A DNA stretch of 64,000 nucleotides. It comes from Candidatus Colwellbacteria bacterium CG10_big_fil_rev_8_21_14_0_10_42_22 (GTDB lineage Bacteria > Patescibacteriota > Minisyncoccia > UBA6257 > Colwellbacteraceae). The notes below the pieces were generated by a model. That model made no database searches. It was not told where the DNA came from and saw only the letters and a list, made by a program, of their open reading frames with translations. The translations under genes and the position numbers were made by a program. The stretch spans positions 59,590 to 123,589 of the forward strand of contig PFAH01000002.1 in NCBI GenBank assembly GCA_002773725.1. Reading direction: 5' to 3'. Positions 2,368 through 22,621 of the stretch are shown one piece after another. Numbering within the stretch: position 1 is the first letter of the stretch; every line of letters starts with the position of its first letter.

Positions 2368-3848
<1,481 letters not shown>

Positions 3849-4114
3849 ATTAATTCTCTCTGAAGTTGAGCTCCAAAGGGAATAGACTTTGTCTACCTAA
3901 TGTAGATCTACCTGCCGATGGGCAGGTTTGGGACAACTAAAAAGCGTTCTGCTTTTTCTATAAGAAAATTCCACCTCTACAAAAGCTTATATATTTTGCC
4001 GAAGGGGCATAAGCATCTGTAGAGGTGGAACCTCTATTTCTTAAAGTTCTCGTATGTCAGTTGTCTTTATGGCTGTTCCATAATGTATAACAATTCATAA
4101 CCGACCGTCTCCAT

Positions 4115-4184: not shown

Positions 4185-4209
4185 AAAAGCCCCCACTACG
4201 GGGGCTTTT
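4185..4209. terminator. GC hairpin (AAAAGCCCCC-actac-GGGGGCTTTT), a bidirectional intrinsic terminator downstream of the 4287-6791 gene
   Basis: Perfect 10-bp stem flanked by an A-tract and a T-tract. Confidence 0.6.
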
Positions 4210-4286
4210 CTTTTAAGAGTTCGTTTTGTCTAGGACACTCACTTTACCAACACGCCTACTCGTAGGCAATGCTGGTTCAACACAGG

Positions 4287-6791
4287 TTACACTAGTGCGG
4301 CAGACCTTTTGTCACGTCCAGCGACAAAGTAACGAACTGCAAAGTAGATCAAGAGGATGAGTAAGAACAGCCACAAGATCGGGCTCGTGAAGAAATCACG
4401 CAAGCTGTCTAGAAGTAAAGCGGTGAAAGTTCCGCCAACCCTACCGCTAATCAACTCTCCAAAAGTGTGTTCGTCAATAACGGTCACAACTTTACGAGTT
4501 CCGCTGTCTGTGTATTCCACGTCAGCAGTAAAGCGGATAGTGTCATTTACATCGACACTGTTGCTTACCTCTGTGGTAATCACGAATGAATCTTGTTCGT
4601 CCGGACTGATGGTGCCGATATTAAATGTCAGCACATCATTTCGGTCATTGTCGGCATTCGGATCTGCATCAACGAAATCAAGCTCACGAGGGAGATCAAC
4701 TAACAGTTGTGCATCGGTGAAGGTTTCATCGGTGCGATTCTCGTAAGAAACTGTGTAGCTAATCTCGCGACTATCCTCAGCGCCGATTCTGTCAGCGTCA
4801 AGGGTAATTATGAGAGCTTCTATTTCTGGCTCTTCTTCTACTTCAACCGTCCTGAAAACTTCAACAATTCGGGTAACTACGTTTACTATCGGAGCTCCAG
4901 TACGGAAACTTCTAACAAAACCGTAGTCGGTACCCTCACTGTTTCTAGCTACAGCGCGGTAGTAGTAAGTAGTTTGAGAAGCGAGACCGGTGATTCTGTA
5001 GTCGAAATCGATATTATCGTTATCGCCTATATCATCGCGAGAGGTCTCCCTGTTAAGATTAGAGACACTAGTGCCCCATTGGAACCACACATCTGTGTCG
5101 TTACCATTGGCATCAACATCGCCCTCTAGAGTAGCTTCGTTTTGTCCAACTCCAGTCGGAGCCAAAGTAGTTACATCGGGCCCTTCGTCAGATGAACTTC
5201 CACCGTTTTCGTCTGTAGTAAAGCTTCTAGTAGAACCCTCATCTTCCTCACCACCGTCATCTTCTATAAAACAACGGAAGTAATACTTAGTGTCCTCGTC
5301 GAGACCAGAAATGATCTTTGTAACTATTTCATTTGTCTCTCCATCTTGAACACTTATTTTAGAGGTCTTTTCATCTAAGTCGGTGTCTTCACCCCACTCA
5401 AACCAAACATCGGCATCGTCGCCATTAGTATCAACTTCACAGCGCAAACGGGCGCTATCTTCATCTATCCTATCGGCAGACAAGGTTGTGGCGCTTGGCT
5501 TGTCGCCTGATCCACCGCCGTTATCGTCTGTAGTGAAGTTCAAAATATTACCCCTGTCTGTGCCTTCGCTATTTTTAGCTACACAGCGGAAGTAATACTT
5601 AGTGTCCTCATCCAAGTCGTCAATGTCTATTTCAACTCTTTCGTTAGTTTCATCAGCATCAACATCAACCTTAGATGTGTCTTCATCGAGATCATCGTCG
5701 TCCTCGCCCCACTCAAACCAAACTTCAGTATCATTGCCATTAGCATCTACATCACAACGCAAGGTTGCACTATCTTCGTCTACGTCAGTAGCAGAGACAG
5801 TAGTTGCCTCGGGCGCGTCTTCTGTTGGTCCGGGATCGTCATCGTCTGTAGTGAAGTTCAAAATATTACCCCTGTCTGTGCCTTCGCTATTTTTAGCTAC
5901 ACAGCGGAAGTAATACTTAGTGTCTTCGTCGAGACCGGTAGCAACTCTAGTAAAAGAGAAGGTGTCATTGTTCTTGCCAATAATTCTTACACTGGTCTCT
6001 TTATTTAAGTTGTTGCTATTCTCACCGTACTCAAACCAAGCTTCTGTGTTGGCTCCATTGGGGTCAACATCACAATGCAATGTAGCACTGTTTCTATCTA
6101 CGTTTGTAGCAGAGACAGTGGTGGCTTCGGGTGCACCCCCTGTTGGTCCAGGATTCTCGTCACCATTAACCCTGAAACTAACTACGACGAAGCCAGCGTT
6201 TCTCTCGCCGGGCTTAATATTCCCGACTGAAAGACCGCTACTATCAAGCACGTCCTCTGGGTCGCCCGAGAGAGGAACTTCGTGCACTGGGTTCCAGTGA
6301 GTGGTCTGAACAGTAGCAAGATGATCCACATCTGTAATCTTTCCGTCTCCGGTTAAATTAACAACCACTGTTTCGGCTTTCTGGGGAGCGTTATTCGCCC
6401 AGATATAACCCCTGATAACCACTTTGCGACCATCAGATGAAATAGTCGGATATATCCTCACTTTGGCACCGTTGGCTCTATCGTCACCGGTATTATTGAA
6501 AAATAATACGGCAGCAACTTTATCACCAAGTTCGGCGTTTACGCTTTGATTTTGCCAATTATAGGTTCCTCCTTGATTAGTGGAGCTCCCTACTCGTAGA
6601 AAATCATAAGGTTGAGAGCCCTGATTAAATACGGCAGCGGCGAAAACGGTGTTAATCAACGGTAGCGCTAAGTTAGCTGCCACAAATAAACCAGTTACAA
6701 TGGCTATCAATCCTTTTCTTTGACCTTTTAACAAATTAGTCATTTGTTTTTTGTATTTATTTTTAACCTTTATGCGAGCTTTATTACCCAC
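4287..6791 (-). CDS. Large acidic cell-surface repeat protein with N-terminal signal anchor, four tandem ~106-aa repeats and a C-terminal TM plus basic tail
   Basis: 834 aa. N-terminal hydrophobic segment GLIAIVTGLFVAANLALPLINTVFA. Repeats of ...ATTVSATxVDxxSATLxCDVDxNGxDTEVWFEWGED...DTKYYFRCVAKNSEGTDRGNILNFTTDD (fibronectin-III/Ig-like feel). C-terminus ILWLFLLILLIYFAVRYFVAGRDKRSAALV. Confidence 0.65.
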   Translation of the reverse strand: MGNKARIKVKNKYKKQMTNLLKGQRKGLIAIVTGLFVAANLALPLINTVFAAAVFNQGSQPYDFLRVGSSTNQGGTYNWQNQSVNAELGDKVAAVLFFNNTGDDRANGAKVRIYPTISSDGRKVVIRGYIWANNAPQKAETVVVNLTGDGKITDVDHLATVQTTHWNPVHEVPLSGDPEDVLDSSGLSVGNIKPGERNAGFVVVSFRVNGDENPGPTGGAPEATTVSATNVDRNSATLHCDVDPNGANTEAWFEYGENSNNLNKETSVRIIGKNNDTFSFTRVATGLDEDTKYYFRCVAKNSEGTDRGNILNFTTDDDDPGPTEDAPEATTVSATDVDEDSATLRCDVDANGNDTEVWFEWGEDDDDLDEDTSKVDVDADETNERVEIDIDDLDEDTKYYFRCVAKNSEGTDRGNILNFTTDDNGGGSGDKPSATTLSADRIDEDSARLRCEVDTNGDDADVWFEWGEDTDLDEKTSKISVQDGETNEIVTKIISGLDEDTKYYFRCFIEDDGGEEDEGSTRSFTTDENGGSSSDEGPDVTTLAPTGVGQNEATLEGDVDANGNDTDVWFQWGTSVSNLNRETSRDDIGDNDNIDFDYRITGLASQTTYYYRAVARNSEGTDYGFVRSFRTGAPIVNVVTRIVEVFRTVEVEEEPEIEALIITLDADRIGAEDSREISYTVSYENRTDETFTDAQLLVDLPRELDFVDADPNADNDRNDVLTFNIGTISPDEQDSFVITTEVSNSVDVNDTIRFTADVEYTDSGTRKVVTVIDEHTFGELISGRVGGTFTALLLDSLRDFFTSPILWLFLLILLIYFAVRYFVAGRDKRSAALV
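5165..6125. repeat. Tandem near-identical DNA repeats (period about 318 bp, 3+ copies) inside the surface-protein gene
   Basis: Identical about 75-nt blocks (gtgaagttcaaaatattacccctgtctgtgccttcgctatttttagctacacagcggaagtaatacttagtgtc) start at 5533 and 5851; related copies occur near 5270 and 5908. Confidence 0.7.
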
Positions 6792-6935
6792 ATTTAAACC
6801 CTTGACGCTTTATTTTCAAGAGTTTAGGCGTAGGTCCCTCCGACTATTTTGTGCGCGAACACACATTTCGTCGGAGGGATTTTTCGGATCTTAGACAGAC
6901 CCGAATATAGCCAGGACGCTACCTACACGGAATCG

Positions 6936-8195
6936 TTACGGGATAGTCGGCTGACTACCACCACCCTCGGTGGTGGCGGACGACTCTGTCGGGATGGTGG
7001 GCTGTCCGGAGCAAGCTTCGGGGTTCTCCACCTCCGGGACGTTGAACCTATAGGAGCGACTCGTCGATGCTCCAAGGTTGTCCGTCGCCGTCACGGTGAC
7101 GGTGTGCCGACCCAAGTAGTACGGGCCATTTGCCAGAGAGAACACAACCGACCTCACGCCGTCTGGATCGGAAACGTTCGCTCCGAAGACGACCTCTGCG
7201 AAACCTTCACAATTCGTCTCCCCGAGCGTCGCCGAAATCGAGATGATTTCAGGGCCGACATTTGGGGTCGTAGTCGTGGTCGGTTCAGTGGTCGTCGGCA
7301 CCTCGGTCGTCGTCGAACCCTCGGTGGTCGTCGTTGAGCCACCACCCCCTCGGGTTGTCGGCGGTTCATAGGGCGCCGTCGACGAAGGAACCTCGCAGGT
7401 GCGGCATGGAATGCCGCACTCATTGAGAACGCCGAGCACCATCAGACGAAACTCGTCCGCTTCCCACGCTCCGGGGTGATCCAGAAGATGAGCATCGATG
7501 AGGGCGTACACCCTGTCGATGTCTCCTTGGATGTAGCCGAGCTTTTCGCTCAGCCACCCGCGAAGATTCGCGATTTCCTGGTCGTTGCCAGCCACGTCCG
7601 CCTTCAGGGCGCCAACACGCGGACCGAAGTCGAGTGTGAACCGCTCGAAGTCAGAGCGAAGGTTGGCGATGGAAGTCACGACTCCGTCGATGCGGTCGTC
7701 GACGGCGCTGATATCACCGGCATTCCGGCCGGCGATGGCGAGCGCCAACACCGTGCCAATCGTGGCGATCAAGATCGCCACGGCACCAAGACCGGCGAGG
7801 AACCGACGACCGTTCCGGCCGTGGGCCTCACCCCGCAAACGCTCATCGCGCTCGCGGTCGAGGTCTCGACGGAGCCGGTCTTCGACGGCCTGATCGGCCG
7901 CCTGGACTTGACCCCAGAGACGACCGAATGCGTTTGTGATCGCATTCGCCGTCTCTCCCGGAATCCGAGCCACGTCGGCACGGATGTCGGAGACCGCGGT
8001 CTCCACTGCATTGATACGGCGACGCGCCGACTTGTCTTTGGACATCTTGTTTCCCTTCTTTCGGGGAGCCTGACGCTTATGGTGATAACAGTAGGGCGGG
8101 TTGGTACCCACTCTAATGCGATTACCGCAGTGGGCTCCGTCCTTTCTATTACCATTGCACAGCATCAGACCCTCCTCTCTAGGGAGTGCTAGCAT
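6936..8195 (-). CDS. GC-rich island protein: cytoplasmic N-region, single TM, extracytoplasmic domain, Thr-rich linker and Ig-like C-terminal domain. The start is uncertain; the internal Met (MSKDKSARRR) at about 8045 may be the true start.
   Basis: 419 aa. TM segment FLAGLGAVAILIATIGTVLALAIAG. Linker TTTTEGSTTTEVPTTTEPTTTTTP. C-terminal beta-rich VVFSLANGPYYLGRHTVTVTATDNLGAS. The region's GC is markedly above the flanks, so overlapping opposite-strand ORFs (7476-8192+, 6849-7337+, 7154-7423-, 7585-7893+, 7769-8155-) are taken as stop-poor GC artefacts. Confidence 0.45.
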   Translation of the reverse strand: MLALPREEGLMLCNGNRKDGAHCGNRIRVGTNPPYCYHHKRQAPRKKGNKMSKDKSARRRINAVETAVSDIRADVARIPGETANAITNAFGRLWGQVQAADQAVEDRLRRDLDRERDERLRGEAHGRNGRRFLAGLGAVAILIATIGTVLALAIAGRNAGDISAVDDRIDGVVTSIANLRSDFERFTLDFGPRVGALKADVAGNDQEIANLRGWLSEKLGYIQGDIDRVYALIDAHLLDHPGAWEADEFRLMVLGVLNECGIPCRTCEVPSSTAPYEPPTTRGGGGSTTTTEGSTTTEVPTTTEPTTTTTPNVGPEIISISATLGETNCEGFAEVVFGANVSDPDGVRSVVFSLANGPYYLGRHTVTVTATDNLGASTSRSYRFNVPEVENPEACSGQPTIPTESSATTEGGGSQPTIP

Positions 8196-8240
8196 GTGCT
8201 AAGTGTCCACCATTTCTGACGGACACTTAGCACATGCTAG
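8189..8240. repeat. Perfect 20-bp inverted repeat (CTAGCATGTGCTAAGTGTCC ... GGACACTTAGCACATGCTAG) with a 12-nt loop at the right edge of GC-rich island A
   Basis: Both arms read directly; the reverse complement of the right arm equals the left arm. It overlaps the annotated ATG (8195-8193) of the island ORF. Confidence 0.8.
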
Positions 8241-8557
8241 GTGTAGATTTTTTGTCCTGCTATTTTCCTATATGAATAGGTTGATAAATGTACAAAGCAG
8301 AAAGCGACAGAATTACTGCCTTTTACCTCTTATTTGGTACTTTCTACCATATGGTAAGTTTATACCACGACTTGACTAAAAAGTCAAGACATATGTGGCC
8401 ATTACTATTCTACCTCGTTAGAAGCAGGGCGCAAGAGTACGTCCGACAGCTCCCTAGGGGTAGCTTGATTTTAACGGGGCTCAAGTAAACGGGATTGACT
8501 ATATCCCCATAATTACTGATAATAAGCCCGTTAAACCTTATGCCGTTAGAGATTATT

Positions 8558-8581
8558 ATGTATTACGCATACGTAATACAT
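8558..8581. promoter_or_regulatory. 10-bp perfect inverted repeat with 4-nt spacer (ATGTATTACG-cata-CGTAATACAT) about 80 bp upstream of rpmE; candidate operator
   Basis: Read directly. The half-site words resemble the CGTAAT/ATTACG words of Firmicutes Zur boxes, but in swapped order. Confidence 0.3.
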
Positions 8582-8663
8582 AGCAAAAAGGGGTTTTAAT
8601 GAAGAATTTTAGATTTCTTTAAGCTAATCTAATCACGAAGTCATTACAAATAAGTTAAATTTA

Positions 8664-8987
8664 ATGAAAAAGGATACCCACCCAACATACTACAAAAACT
8701 CAAAAACTCTGTGTTCATGCGGGAAAACGCATGAAATTGGCTCTACTCGGGAGAAAATGGAGGTAGAAATTTGTTCTAACTGTCACCCCTTCTTCACGGG
8801 TCAAGAACGACTTGTTGATACTGCTGGAAGAGTAGAAAAGTTTAAGGCGCGACGAGCGAAGGCGGAACTCACAAAGGCATCTATTAAAAGCAGGTCTGCT
8901 TCCAAAAGAAAACCAAAAATAGCCAAAACCGAAAAAATTAAGCCCACTAAGAAACCCAAGAAGACCCCCGAAAAGACATCCAAGTAA
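8664..8987 (+). CDS. rpmE: 50S ribosomal protein L31 (zinc-ribbon C+ form) with an unusually long Lys-rich C-terminal extension
   Basis: MKKDTHPTYYKNSKTLCSCGKTHEIGSTREKMEVEICSNCHPFFTG matches the L31 HPxY...CxCG...CxxCH signature. An extra tail of about 35 residues follows (KRKPKIAKTEKIKPTKKPKKTPEKTSK). Confidence 0.85.
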   Translation: MKKDTHPTYYKNSKTLCSCGKTHEIGSTREKMEVEICSNCHPFFTGQERLVDTAGRVEKFKARRAKAELTKASIKSRSASKRKPKIAKTEKIKPTKKPKKTPEKTSK

Positions 8988-9036
8988 ATCCCCCGAAAGG
9001 CGCTTACTTTGTAAGCACCACGAGGCAGGTGGACCT

Positions 9037-9777
9037 ATGAGTGACAAAGCAATACTCGAAATAAGGGCTGGTGCGGGCGGTGACGAAGCCGCTATTTTTG
9101 CGGGCGACCTAGCCCGCATGTATCAGCGTTTCGCTGAAAATGAGGGTTGGAAATTTACTGTTTTAGACACAAGTCAAACCTCCTTGGATGGCTATAAATC
9201 TTTCGTGGCTCAAATTAGGGGTGAGGGAGTATATGAAAAACTTAGGCAGGAATCTGGAGTACATCGTGTCCAACGTATTCCTAAAACAGAAAAGTCAGGC
9301 CGTATTCATACGTCAACTGCTTCTGTAGCAATAATGCCCGTAGTTGAGGCCCAAGAAGTAGCTATTAATCCAAGCGATCTAGACGTTTCTTTCTTCCGTT
9401 CAAGTGGTCCGGGTGGTCAAAACGTTAATAAAGTAGAAACGGCCGTAAGGATAGTCCATAAGCCAACCGGGGTTGTTGTAAGCTCGCAAGCTGGACGAAG
9501 TCAACAAAGTAATCGTGAGGTTGCCCTAGAGGTCCTTCGTTCTAAACTCTATGAAGCTCAAATCGAGAAACAGGGGCAAGAGATGGGAGAGTTGAGGCGT
9601 AGCCAAATAGGATCAGGTGACCGATCGGAGAAGATTCGCACATACAATTTTCCTCAAGACCGCATCACCGATCATCGTATCGGTAAGAAGTGGCACAATT
9701 TAGAAAAAATCCTTGAAGGAGATATAACGCCCATCATTAAGGCCTTTCAAAAAGCTAAAAAGGAAAGCGAGGGTTAA
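9037..9777 (+). CDS. prfA: Peptide chain release factor, RF1-type (PxT motif PKT, GGQ motif), lacking the N-terminal domain 1
   Basis: 246 aa begins EIRAGAGGDEAAIFAGDLARMYQRF, which corresponds to about residue 105 of canonical RF1. It also carries RVQRIPKTEKSGRIHTS and SGPGGQNVNK. An in-frame stop (8986-8988) lies 48 nt upstream, so there is no room for domain 1. Confidence 0.7.
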   Translation: MSDKAILEIRAGAGGDEAAIFAGDLARMYQRFAENEGWKFTVLDTSQTSLDGYKSFVAQIRGEGVYEKLRQESGVHRVQRIPKTEKSGRIHTSTASVAIMPVVEAQEVAINPSDLDVSFFRSSGPGGQNVNKVETAVRIVHKPTGVVVSSQAGRSQQSNREVALEVLRSKLYEAQIEKQGQEMGELRRSQIGSGDRSEKIRTYNFPQDRITDHRIGKKWHNLEKILEGDITPIIKAFQKAKKESEG

Positions 9778-9780
9778 AAA

Positions 9781-11220
9781 TTAACTTTCTAATAGCTTGA
9801 TATCTCTCTCGAATTGAGCTGCATGCTCTATAACGGCACGCCCATAAACATCGGTGCACACATATCTTTGCCAATTACCTCCACAATAATATCTAGCTGC
9901 CGCAGCCAACTCGTTTGATGAAGCTCCAGAATCTTTAAGATAAAGTCCTGATGCTACGAAGGCGTCCAAATTGTTCCACGGATTGGCGGGTCTATTGCCA
10001 GTTACCGCCTCCACGCGCGCCTTATACCCTATCCAAGTTGATGGAATGAACTGGGCAGGACCCATTGCGCCTCCATAAGATCCGTCTGATGTAATCGGAC
10101 AAGAGACATAAACTTTGTCCGGGTCTATGTTCAGTTCTTTTACGATTTGTAAGAATGGAGTTATATCGTCTCGTCTGGATTCTGGGGGTCCAGGCGCCAT
10201 AGCGGTCTTATAATTACACTGCCCCACATTCCTACCAAGGGCGGACTCTCTATCAAGCACAGCCAAAATAAGAGCAGCCCTCACGCCCGTTCTCTTTTCT
10301 GCATACTTAGCAAAATTGTAGGCCTCTTCAAATGTCATTTGCCCACCACCCAATAGGCGAAAGATTCTAGCTCTAATTTCAGCAGCGCTTCTTTCGGTAA
10401 CGGTTAGGAGTTGTTGGTAAGTGGCCTCTTCGCCCTTGGTCACATTAAGCAAGGTGTCTTTTTCTGACTTCACAGAATCAACTTCCTGTTTTTGCTTAAC
10501 CTGATAAAGACGAAGCGCCTCCACGTCGGATTTCTCAAGAGCCAGTATTTCTTTATGAGTAATCAACTCCTCTTGGGACTCGGCAAGCTCTATTAGGGTA
10601 TCTTTTAAGCCCTCTTGCACCACCAGAAGATCATTAACGCTAGTAAAGAAATCGGAAAGGTTTTGGTTAGCTAATAAGATTTCTAATATACCCTTTTCGT
10701 CGTCTCGGTTCATTCGTTGAACTACGTCCGAAAGGATGGTCTTGCTACGCCCGATCCTGCTCCTAACCTCTTCTATTTTTGAGGCAGTGCTTTTGATTTG
10801 TCCATTTAATTTATTTAAAGAAGAATTAATTGTATCTATCTGGCCATTAATACTGGCTATACGAGCATTGAGGCGGTTTATCTCTCCCTGAAGGGTGTCT
10901 CCCTTTTTTTGATATTCTTTAATCGTCTCCTGATATTGCTCTATCTGATATTCATACTGTTGAAGTTGGTCTTCCAGCTGTTCACGTTCTTGCTCAACAG
11001 TTAAGGCCCTAACACCTCCGCCAATCGGAGCAAAAACAGAACCGTTGGTCATAAGCACAAATCCAATAGCCACCAAAGTTCCTAAAACAGGCCTTATATA
11101 AGGAACTCGTGTCTTTGTCTTAGAGATAGGACTCAAGTTAACGCGCCCCGAACGTGGGGCAAAAACATCAACCCTCGACCCTCTCCTTATATCTATCAAT
11201 AAGCGAGGTTTGGGTCTCAT
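9781..11220 (-). CDS. Membrane-anchored coiled-coil protein with a C-terminal MltB-like lytic transglycosylase domain
   Basis: N-terminal TM (VLGTLVAIGFVLM), a long heptad-rich coiled coil, and a C-terminal ...SDGSYGGAMGPAQFIPSTWIGY... (the GAMGxxQFMPSTW motif of MltB-family enzymes). Confidence 0.6.
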   Translation of the reverse strand: MRPKPRLLIDIRRGSRVDVFAPRSGRVNLSPISKTKTRVPYIRPVLGTLVAIGFVLMTNGSVFAPIGGGVRALTVEQEREQLEDQLQQYEYQIEQYQETIKEYQKKGDTLQGEINRLNARIASINGQIDTINSSLNKLNGQIKSTASKIEEVRSRIGRSKTILSDVVQRMNRDDEKGILEILLANQNLSDFFTSVNDLLVVQEGLKDTLIELAESQEELITHKEILALEKSDVEALRLYQVKQKQEVDSVKSEKDTLLNVTKGEEATYQQLLTVTERSAAEIRARIFRLLGGGQMTFEEAYNFAKYAEKRTGVRAALILAVLDRESALGRNVGQCNYKTAMAPGPPESRRDDITPFLQIVKELNIDPDKVYVSCPITSDGSYGGAMGPAQFIPSTWIGYKARVEAVTGNRPANPWNNLDAFVASGLYLKDSGASSNELAAAARYYCGGNWQRYVCTDVYGRAVIEHAAQFERDIKLLES

Positions 11221-22264: not shown

Positions 22265-22621
22265 ACAAAACACCCCGACTTGGGTCGGGGCGTTTTGGTT
22301 TCCACTCGGTGCCTTCTCTCATGAGTCTGCGAAGGGGGGTTCGCGGACTCATGAGAGAAGCGGAGAGAGGACGAACGAGATTATCATTCGTTCCCTCTCC
22401 GTTGAAGTTTGTGGGGTGGTGGATGGACGTTAATCCACTGCGCTTTGACGCCAAGCAGGCGTGGGAGAACTTGTTCCCACAGGGACCATAACTAGCGTGT
22501 GGTCGTAACCACACGGCGCTCTAGCCGTCCTCTATCCACCACCCCGGCTAATTAATCCGAATATTCAGATGAATTAGTCGAAGTAGTGGAGCCACTCCAT
22601 CGTTTCAAATTTTCAGGGTAC
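22265..22621 (-). ncRNA. Candidate structured RNA of about 350 nt and unknown class, running from a consensus promoter to an intrinsic terminator (hairpin 22274-22290 plus U-tract)
   Basis: Contains a 12+5-bp closing helix (GGGGUGGUGGAU...GGACG / CGUCC...AUCCACCACCCC, 22413-22547) enclosing a multi-branch junction with two internal hairpins. Two further long hairpins follow (22318-22366 and about 22370-22410), then CCCCGAC-ccaa-GUCGGGG-UGUUUUG. The only long ORF (22260-22514, GTG start, 84 aa) runs through the hairpins into the terminator and is not protein-like. Confidence 0.45.

Follow-up and report, generated by a model that had tools for sequence, protein, structure and literature searches.

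A GC-rich gene kept at one locus across a clade of Paceibacteria: a probable native surface-protein cassette

Genomic segments of deviating composition are routinely taken as signs of recent horizontal transfer, and a GC-rich gene of Candidatus Colwellbacteria bacterium CG10_big_fil_rev_8_21_14_0_10_42_22 raises the question of whether such a reading is correct. The gene lies on the minus strand of a 64,000-nt stretch of contig PFAH01000002.1, here called the window, in which it forms an island (~6900–8165) of 56–71% guanine plus cytosine (GC) against 42% window-wide. An earlier note on this DNA proposed that the island was acquired horizontally, possibly from a high-GC host or partner organism, and that it was bracketed by inverted-repeat hairpins. 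Our analysis suggests instead that the island is very probably a native, clade-wide single-gene cassette with its own promoter and structured untranslated regions (UTRs), which diversifies fast and is exchanged between relatives, and which is neither a recent foreign insertion nor a mobile element nor an assembly artefact. We tentatively propose that its GC richness is kept because the transcript (or single-stranded DNA) must be heavily base-paired. As a whole, the statement that this is a self-contained native surface-protein gene cassette, long kept in its slot, with its GC held up by selection on transcript structure, is the explanation towards which we lean.

The reported GC jump was borne out, with 0.61–0.65 GC in 500-nt windows over 7001–8000 and a mean of 0.424 for the 64-kb window. 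In 100-nt windows the region from ~6900 to ~8050 was at 0.56 GC or above, while 8050–8250 was at 0.49–0.54; the strongly GC-rich stretch is thus about 1.25 kb long, short of the full 1.4 kb first proposed, and it coincides with the coding sequence. Among the 52 open reading frames (ORFs) of at least 120 amino acids in the window, the island ORF had the highest GC content (z 4.7), and its codon usage was also extreme, with GC at third codon positions (GC3) of 0.69 compared to 0.39 ± 0.07 (z 4.6). A scan for 600-nt stretches whose GC exceeds the window mean by 0.12 or more found three places in the 64 kb, which were the 16S rRNA gene, a tRNA cluster and the region ~6900–8165, the last being the sole GC island that does not encode RNA. 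The concern that the contig could be chimeric at the island junctions was settled by four matching contigs from different samples, each of which crosses one or both junctions (contigs and loci of other assemblies are designated by L numbers): L005 matches 4190–10014 of the window with 99.95% identity, and L004 (1–8347), L006 (6909–9089) and L047 (8207–11244) match it with 100% identity. Independent metagenome contigs end at the promoter, in the 20-bp hairpin or in the island (L004 at 8347, L047 at 8207 and L006 at 6909), and contigs L008, L009, L035, L042, L046 and L065 also break in or near it. The likely causes of these repeated breaks are the palindrome, GC-dependent coverage or strain variation.

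The order of the genes for L25, an SLT protein, a release factor (RF), L31, the island protein and a protein with fn3 domains is shared by the relatives L001, L002 and L003, and L001 carries further downstream a response regulator, a pilin and PilB/PilC-type genes. A search of species-representative genomes with the SLT neighbor gave two more close relatives (L008 and L009, one of them labeled Ca. Colwellbacteria), and in both of them the contig stops inside a GC-rich gene at the equivalent place. A metagenome scan for the conserved promoter DNA motif added L035, L037/L042/L046 and L062, which have RF and L31 upstream, plus SLT where the contig extends that far; about 25 of the 35 matches to the promoter pattern were discarded as unrelated chance matches, phage contigs among them. 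The clade formed by these loci is a small group of Paceibacteria within the candidate phyla radiation (CPR), with relatives labeled Patescibacteria or 'Ca. Colwellbacteria'. A GC-rich gene was present in the slot in all eight related lineages found. Its products differ: tblastn of the window protein against L008, L009, L035, L037 and L062 gave no match, and the full-length L037 and L062 proteins combine a Cys/His motif and a membrane helix with a Thr linker and, at the distal end, a PKD domain that matches the K319L-like_PKD family with E values of 2e-8 and 2.9e-11, respectively. Hence, at least three classes of proteins, which do not align with each other, share one architecture at the slot, and the GC richness belongs to the slot and not to one protein family.

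The data also showed that the high GC content is old or is continually restored. The island exceeded its own flanks by 13–20 GC points in each of the eight lineages, with none at parity; its GC3 ranged across lineages from 0.66 to 0.87 compared to 0.30–0.62 for the flank genes, with a within-lineage offset of +0.12 to +0.45. Genomic GC in the clade varies from ~42 to 54%, and the island GC3 tracks this background, as in L003, where the flanks are at ~0.57 and the island, an allele of 70% GC, is at 0.87. The proportion of synonymous differences (pS) in the flank genes was 0.75–0.93, and at identical residues these genes used the same codon in a fraction of 0.36–0.48 of cases, while 0.34–0.37 is expected at saturation. 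Because the flank genes are saturated at synonymous sites, the GC richness must have persisted or been repeatedly renewed. The island pair of the window and L002 was likewise saturated (same-codon fraction 0.39 vs. 0.36), with GC3 of ~0.7 in both alleles. That this genome recently took up the gene from a high-GC host or partner is very improbable on these data. Such an uptake would fit the sharp compositional step and the atypical codon usage, and Thr/Pro-rich linkers together with a composition rich in Gly, Ala, Arg and Pro (GARP) recall actinobacterial proteins; however, every relative found has a GC-rich gene at this locus, which is the observation that the earlier note itself had named as refuting its reading. 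The promoter and leader of the gene are native, AT-rich and conserved, the searches described below revealed no donor homologue, and neither mobility genes nor borders made of tRNAs or direct repeats occur at the locus. As a stable clade-wide property of a slot, this island is a counter-example for island-calling in CPR genomes.

The folding of the coding sequence was compared with that of shuffled sequences that preserved the protein and the codon counts, and also with dinucleotide shuffles. With synonymous-codon shuffles the z values for the six complete island coding sequences, those of the window, L001, L002, L003, L037 and L062, were −5.8, −6.6, −8.6, −5.4, −8.8 and −8.0, respectively, while those for the RF and SLT controls were −0.1 and −1.8. 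With dinucleotide shuffles z lay between −6.3 and −12.8 for the islands, and the controls gave +0.2 and −0.9. The island coding sequences are, hence, folded in excess of what their protein and codon content requires, and the local folding signal peaks at both UTRs and at 7700–8200.

Comparison of the window with L001 at the DNA level showed a mosaic. The housekeeping flanks are ~70% identical and the N-terminal part of the island 45–67% identical, while the Ig-like module at 7000–7300 is 89–96% identical and the promoter and 5′ part of the fn3 gene (6180–6850) are 85–93% identical. Similarly, the same-codon fraction for this pair is 0.70 in the island and 0.64 in the fn3 gene, compared to 0.44 in SLT. 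Since segments of the island and of the fn3 gene are far closer to L001 than the flanks are, cassettes are exchanged laterally between relatives at this locus; the recombination between lineages presumably runs through the conserved flanks. Three samples carry the same island protein (P0001) without any difference, and the DNA of a fourth assembly, L005, is 99.95% identical to the window, which places the variation between lineages and not within populations.

Such exchange could itself raise the GC content if the slot were a recombination hotspot in which biased repair of heteroduplexes pushes weakly constrained sites to G or C. The recombination tracts visible at the locus are in agreement with GC-biased gene conversion, and so is the rise of GC, which affects each of the three codon positions as well as the amino-acid usage, a pattern that a directional, mutation-like pressure on a weakly constrained protein should produce. 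On the other hand, the recently exchanged 5′ segment of the fn3 gene keeps an ordinary GC of 0.35–0.45 and GC3 of 0.41, which disfavors a recombination-driven GC bias as the sole cause. The composition step falls at the start and stop codons and not at the borders of identity tracts, the excess of pairing over synonymous shuffles is not predicted by gene conversion, and the gene-conversion bias reported for bacteria shifts GC3 by only a few points and not by 30–45. We therefore consider gene conversion an improbable explanation.

No donor became visible, and homologues of the island protein were found only within the clade. Sequence and profile searches of Pfam, PHROGs, NCBIfam and PDB gave nothing significant, only coiled-coil noise. 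A search with the C-terminal 87-amino-acid module alone was uninformative, as it did not return even the island protein. A word-indexed search of 5.8 billion clusters returned only the island protein itself and three homologues, and a HMMER profile search of 1.84 billion representative proteins with the conserved core returned only the clade's own three clusters; weaker profile matches were rejected as coiled-coil or low-complexity proteins. Searches of phage, plasmid and viral-contig (IMG/VR) sequences gave no homologue, and a metagenome scan with the protein core gave nothing. The L037 class, the second class at the locus, finds only itself in the 5.8 billion clusters and is also an orphan.

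A foreign origin in the clade ancestor is nevertheless conceivable. The gene could have had a high-GC origin in that ancestor, or its alleles could be re-imported from an unsampled GC-rich pool in relatives, a host or phages, so that the GC never decays. Among more distant Paceibacteria, in which SLT is ~35% identical, 18 of 21 loci had no comparable island within 10 kb, so that an equivalent neighborhood exists without the gene; the GC-rich segments at the other three (L017, L029 and L030) were rejected as unrelated genes, that of L017 encoding an RTX-like repeat protein. Ancient acquisition with repeated replacement of the cassette would also agree with the demonstrated lateral exchange, with the several unalignable protein classes in one slot, with the GARP share of the island protein (0.35 vs. 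0.18–0.27), which is as in high-GC proteomes, and with the span of genomic GC in the clade. Against it, no donor emerged from any of the collections searched, all eight islands lie above their own flanks and none has reached parity, the L003 allele would require a donor still richer in GC, the synonymous saturation between the window and L002 alleles points to long residence, and the excess folding over synonymous shuffles is left unexplained. Altogether, this explanation is the main rival to ours but appears rather unlikely.

The islands of L029 (6451–7700) and L030 (1–1000) are the only GC-rich islands at those loci (0.58 vs. 0.39–0.40) and encode proteins related to each other; the one in L029 adjoins a reverse transcriptase (YADD) of the type found in diversity-generating retroelements (DGRs) and an Avd-like gene. 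High GC within an AT-rich CPR genome is, hence, also seen in a variable gene of another kind.

In the explanation that we prefer, a cassette in a cell-surface and pilus neighborhood would be expressed from a strong promoter with a palindromic operator-like site, and its transcript would carry a leader hairpin, a strong Shine-Dalgarno sequence and a multi-hairpin 3′ UTR. The product would be a single-pass N-in/C-out membrane protein, most likely an exposed surface or host-contact protein. The locus is anchored vertically, with place, promoter, leader and architecture alike in the eight lineages, while the coding sequence diversifies fast and is swapped between lineages, presumably by recombination in the conserved flanks. 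High GC is a lasting property of whichever coding sequence fills the slot and not the scar of a recent import, and selection for a base-paired, probably long-lived or translation-limited transcript would favor G or C at weakly constrained codon positions. If this is true, it would be a case of unusually strong selection at the nucleic-acid level overriding the genomic mutation bias across a whole bacterial gene. A broader and more doubtful formulation is that the slot holds any resident coding sequence, across protein classes that can no longer be aligned, 15–20 GC points (GC3 +12 to +45) above the genome and far more self-complementary than its codons demand, because a gene-specific regime of selection or mutation has long acted at the level of the nucleic acid. 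Such a regime could reflect an obligatorily compact or long-lived mRNA under dual constraint, or hairpin-driven diversification and exchange, acting on a host-contact protein of an episymbiotic CPR bacterium.

Several observations weigh against selection on transcript structure. The antisense strand also folds in excess (z −5.6), which means that the signal is largely Watson–Crick self-complementarity, and this could arise from inverted repeats at the DNA level or from a mutational process instead of selection on RNA. The fn3 gene folds in excess without high GC (z −4.3 for its 5′ part, range −4.3 to −4.8). In a test for conserved helices in the coding sequence, the island core has 11 double-change pairs compared to 5.1 in shuffles, and the RF control, treated in the same way, behaves similarly with 6 compared to 3.7. 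Excess folding and GC richness are linked by correlation only, and, to our knowledge, highly expressed or stable mRNAs are normally not 20 points off the genomic GC. The comparison, moreover, covers only eight lineages, several of them on truncated contigs.

To place these results on the sequence, the features of the cassette are collected in the table. The two edge inverted repeats described before are present at their reported positions: the left one (6835–6844/6870–6879, 10 bp perfect, 25-nt loop) lies inside the 3′ UTR structure, and the right one is the 20-bp hairpin with a 12-nt loop in the leader. The edge repeats are not repeats of each other and each of them is self-contained, which identifies them as stem–loops of the gene's own UTRs, conserved by covariation, and not as the borders of an insert. 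A hairpin of 17–26 bp is found at the equivalent place in all eight lineages, with differing arm sequences, and a consensus fold of five leaders contains 16 pairs with compensatory changes, mostly in the 20-bp stem. The minimum free energy (MFE) of the leader has a z value of −6.6. The leader hairpin of the window is the longest perfect hairpin in the 64 kb; the only other one of comparable length (22313–22360, 21 bp, 95% complementary) is located beside a tRNA-Lys/tRNA-Arg cluster. In seven of the eight leader hairpins, the 3′ part of the loop contains TGGTG or TGATG. This loop motif, TGGTG(G), persists in the window, L001–L003, L008, L035 and L062 while the stems differ completely, and its complement CCACCA resembles the 3′ end of tRNA. 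On the downstream side, the arms of the 3′ hairpin vary in L001, L002 and L003 yet stay complementary, and the GTAGG/CCTAC closing stem is retained in L001 and L002. Neither edge hairpin was accepted as an intrinsic (Rho-independent) terminator, because no T-run follows the stem in the direction of the gene; the 3′ hairpin is instead preceded by an A-run. A weak terminator-like stem is located within the leader at 8306–8320. Searches of Rfam with the leader, the hairpins and the island gave no match at the gathering or E-value threshold, and only sub-threshold matches of generic miRNA hairpins to 8189–8240.

The hairpins at both edges, and the contigs of many assemblies that break in or near the island, could recall a mobile element with terminal inverted repeats, such as an insertion sequence, a miniature inverted-repeat element or an integrative island, and the GC-rich islands of the distant L029 and L030 loci, one of them beside a DGR-type reverse transcriptase and an Avd-like gene, could recall a DGR target gene. 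Both possibilities are barely credible here. The self-contained edge repeats do not match each other, so that an element with terminal inverted repeats was rejected; the island has no second copy in the window, no transposase or integrase ORF is present in the island, and the position is fixed in all lineages. Only one plausible ORF is found in 6830–8390, and the nearest tRNA gene is 12 kb away. With regard to a DGR, the 64 kb yielded neither a template/variable repeat pair, nor any repeat that involves the island, nor a match to a reverse transcriptase, and the identity of P0001 in three samples, together with the 99.95% identity of the L005 DNA, argues against rapid hypermutation.

The putative promoter overlaps the palindrome CTTGACTTTTTAGTCAAG (8371–8388), and the motif TTGACTT..T.GTCAA.T..TGGTA is kept at every related locus. 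A strict consensus promoter scan missed this promoter, the final base of its −10 element being A. In an alignment of six loci the leader contains the conserved blocks CATATGGTA, GCTTTGTACATTTA and ATAGCAGGA (8255–8263), and the relatives have a GGAGG-type Shine-Dalgarno sequence at the equivalent position. The promoter-like block of the fn3 gene lies in a region 88–93% identical to L001. A CTTGA(C/A)-N6-8-GTCAAG palindrome covers the −35 region of both the island promoter (8371–8388) and the fn3 promoter (6787–6822) and is kept in relatives; one regulator may use the two palindromes as a common operator. In L001 and L004, a gene for a response regulator lies downstream.

Table. Features of the GC-rich cassette, with positions in the window
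Feature	Coordinates	Strand	Residues	Description
Coding sequence	6936..8165	-	1-409	409 aa + stop; 61% GC; GC1/2/3 = 0.62/0.52/0.70
Cys3His motif	8079..8159	-	3-29	CNGNRKDGAHCGNRIRVGTNPPYCYHH; putative zinc knuckle, predicted cytoplasmic
Basic segment	7803..8078	-	30-121	Arg-rich, helical in low-confidence AlphaFold2 (AF2) secondary structure; predicted cytoplasmic
Transmembrane helix	7728..7802	-	122-146	FLAGLGAVAILIATIGTVLALAIAG; the only one in the protein
Ectodomain core	7392..7712	-	152-258	Conserved, helical, Cys-containing; FERFTLDFGPRVGAL...LGYIQGDI...ECGIPCRTCE, the last at its end
Linker	7263..7391	-	259-301	Thr/Pro/Gly-rich, mucin-like
Ig-like module	7032..7262	-	302-378	Beta-sandwich, 5 predicted strands; predicted local distance difference test score (pLDDT) 50-77; DNA 89-96% identical to L001
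Promoter of island gene	8359..8387	-		Putative; -35 TTGACT, 17-nt spacer, extended -10 TGgTATAAA
5' leader	8166..8352	-		~185 nt; 41% GC, equal to the genome level
5' UTR hairpin	8189..8240	-		Arms 8189-8208/8221-8240; 20 bp perfect; 12-nt loop ending TGGTGG; just 5' of Shine-Dalgarno
Shine-Dalgarno sequence	8170..8177	-		GAGGAGGG; 4 nt 5' of ATG 8165
3' UTR	6830..6926	-		GTAGG/CCTAC closing stem enclosing 3 hairpins; MFE z -6.5
Promoter-like block of fn3 gene	6787..6822	-		CTCTTGAAAATAAAGCGTCAAGGGTTTAAAT; 3' conserved flank of the cassette

The 419-amino-acid ORF first described at 6936–8195 (−) is present, but its start was replaced by the ATG at 8165, because the ATG at 8195 sits in a hairpin arm, 5′ of the Shine-Dalgarno sequence, and public pipelines call a protein of 409 amino acids. 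The Cys/His motif is in frame 3′ of 8165 and is conserved in L001 from that protein's true start. In comparison with L001 the coding sequence has nonsynonymous and synonymous divergences (dN and dS) of 0.23 and 0.64, which indicates purifying selection. The architecture claimed earlier was upheld by the sequence and by the AF2 secondary structure, with a basic N-terminus, one membrane helix, an ectodomain, a Thr-rich linker, including the TTTTEGSTTTEVPTTTEPTTTTTP sequence, and a beta-rich C-terminus. The N-in orientation of the helix is suggested by the positive-inside rule. A C-x(9-11)-C-x(6-14)-C-x(2-4)-H pattern, which could bind zinc, also occurs in the otherwise unalignable L001, L062 and L037 proteins, and this region has a weak match to Pfam zf-primase (E 0.086). 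The ectodomain core has 53 invariant columns over four orthologues, and all full-length relatives have linkers, of varying length. The AF2 model, built from a four-sequence alignment, has a pLDDT of 45 and was used for secondary structure only; the beta-sandwich model is of low confidence, and in a test of PKD and Ig-like profiles the window protein had no Pfam or NCBIfam match. The single match of the C-terminal module, to a repeat in P0005 (precomputed Pfam PF23157 and PF19077), was weak (E 9.5e-4), and residues 379–409 form a short QPTIP-containing tail. Sortase anchoring was rejected, as the C-terminus (...GGGSQPTIP) contains no LPXTG and no hydrophobic tail, and the sole hydrophobic helix is at residues 122–146. 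In the L002 (10001–10140) and L003 (4057–4225) alleles, a short G-X-Y run that resembles collagen, GPRGNAGPAGPMGPVGPMGPPG, takes the place of the Cys/His head on the side presumed to be cytoplasmic; the L003 gene as called by JGI begins 168 nt too late. We infer the function of the protein from its architecture and neighborhood only: it is probably a membrane-anchored stalk, made of a helical domain and a mucin-like spacer, which presents a variable Ig/PKD module at the cell surface and has a small cytoplasmic Cys3His head.

Literature searches gave no description of this locus, and its features were compared with those of known systems. With horizontally acquired compositional islands it shares a sharp step in GC and codon usage and a surface-associated orphan product; it differs from them in that it consists of one gene, has neither an integrase nor borders formed by tRNAs or direct repeats, has no donor in the collections searched, and is found in the same slot and with the same offset in all eight relatives despite saturated synonymous divergence, and so lacks a patchy distribution. 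The mRNAs of envelope proteins such as OmpA and S-layer proteins carry stabilizing 5′ stem–loops and structured UTRs. The cassette resembles them in its strong predicted promoter, long leader, stable hairpin before a strong Shine-Dalgarno sequence and 3′ stem–loop, while its hairpin is located ~110 nt from the predicted transcript start and not at the 5′ end, and its excess structure runs through the coding sequence. The small basic Cys/His N-terminal part, one membrane helix and an external domain also give it a resemblance, and only that, to zinc anti-sigma factors and ToxR-like regulators. The zinc anti-sigma motif is H-x3-C-x2-C, however, while that of the window is C-x9-11-C-x6-14-C-x2-4-H, and no sigma-factor gene is adjacent. 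The external part, consisting of a Thr linker and an Ig/PKD stalk, is typical of adhesins, and L002 and L003 are without the motif. Flexible islands are, as a rule, AT-richer. Surface-protein loci of the hypervariable or exchangeable kind (S-layer/slpA-type cassettes and 'metagenomic islands') are similar to this locus: a surface gene that varies between lineages lies between conserved flanks, its low-complexity spacers are rich in Pro and Thr, recombination makes it a mosaic, and assemblies break up there. A precedent in CPR bacteria is a hypervariable gene with PTD repeats that fragmented a Gracilibacterium assembly (PMC6851277). The slot described here differs in being always GC-richer than the genome and in its excessively self-complementary transcript; the text of that report, as read, mentions no such shift.

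The gene next to the island encodes an 834-amino-acid surface protein with fn3/DUF11 domains (4287–6791, −). Its region 5070–6161 consists of four ~318-nt repeat units that are 61–74% alike, and a 94-nt stretch at 5519–5612 is 97% identical to 5837–5930, which suggests recent gene conversion between the repeats. On the same strand, a full-length 16S rRNA gene (2373–3851, −) follows the fn3 gene at a distance of ~435 nt. Because the island protein adjoins type IV pilus genes and this giant fn3 protein, it is a candidate host-contact determinant, and the locus draws attention to a surface protein that is restricted to one lineage, diversifies rapidly and is shuffled laterally. CPR bacteria of this kind are presumed to be attached to hosts.

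On the other side of the island, the class-I RF gene (9037–9777, +) encodes 246 amino acids with PKT and GGQ motifs, beginning with ILEIRAGAGGDEA, and its relatives have 243–247 amino acids; by comparison with E. coli RF1 it presumably lacks the N-terminal domain 1. In L001 an 86-amino-acid GIY-YIG gene (9272–9532), flanked by CCCGTTAGAGAC and GTCTCTAACGGG, lies between L31 and the island promoter. At 8541–8582 the window retains CCGTTAGAGA followed by ATGTATTACGCATACG, inside a palindrome TATGTATTACG/CGTAATACATA. This segment encodes MYYAYV compared to MYYTYV at the start of the GIY-YIG protein, the first four of the six residues being reported as matching, and it looks like a deletion remnant of the GIY-YIG gene.

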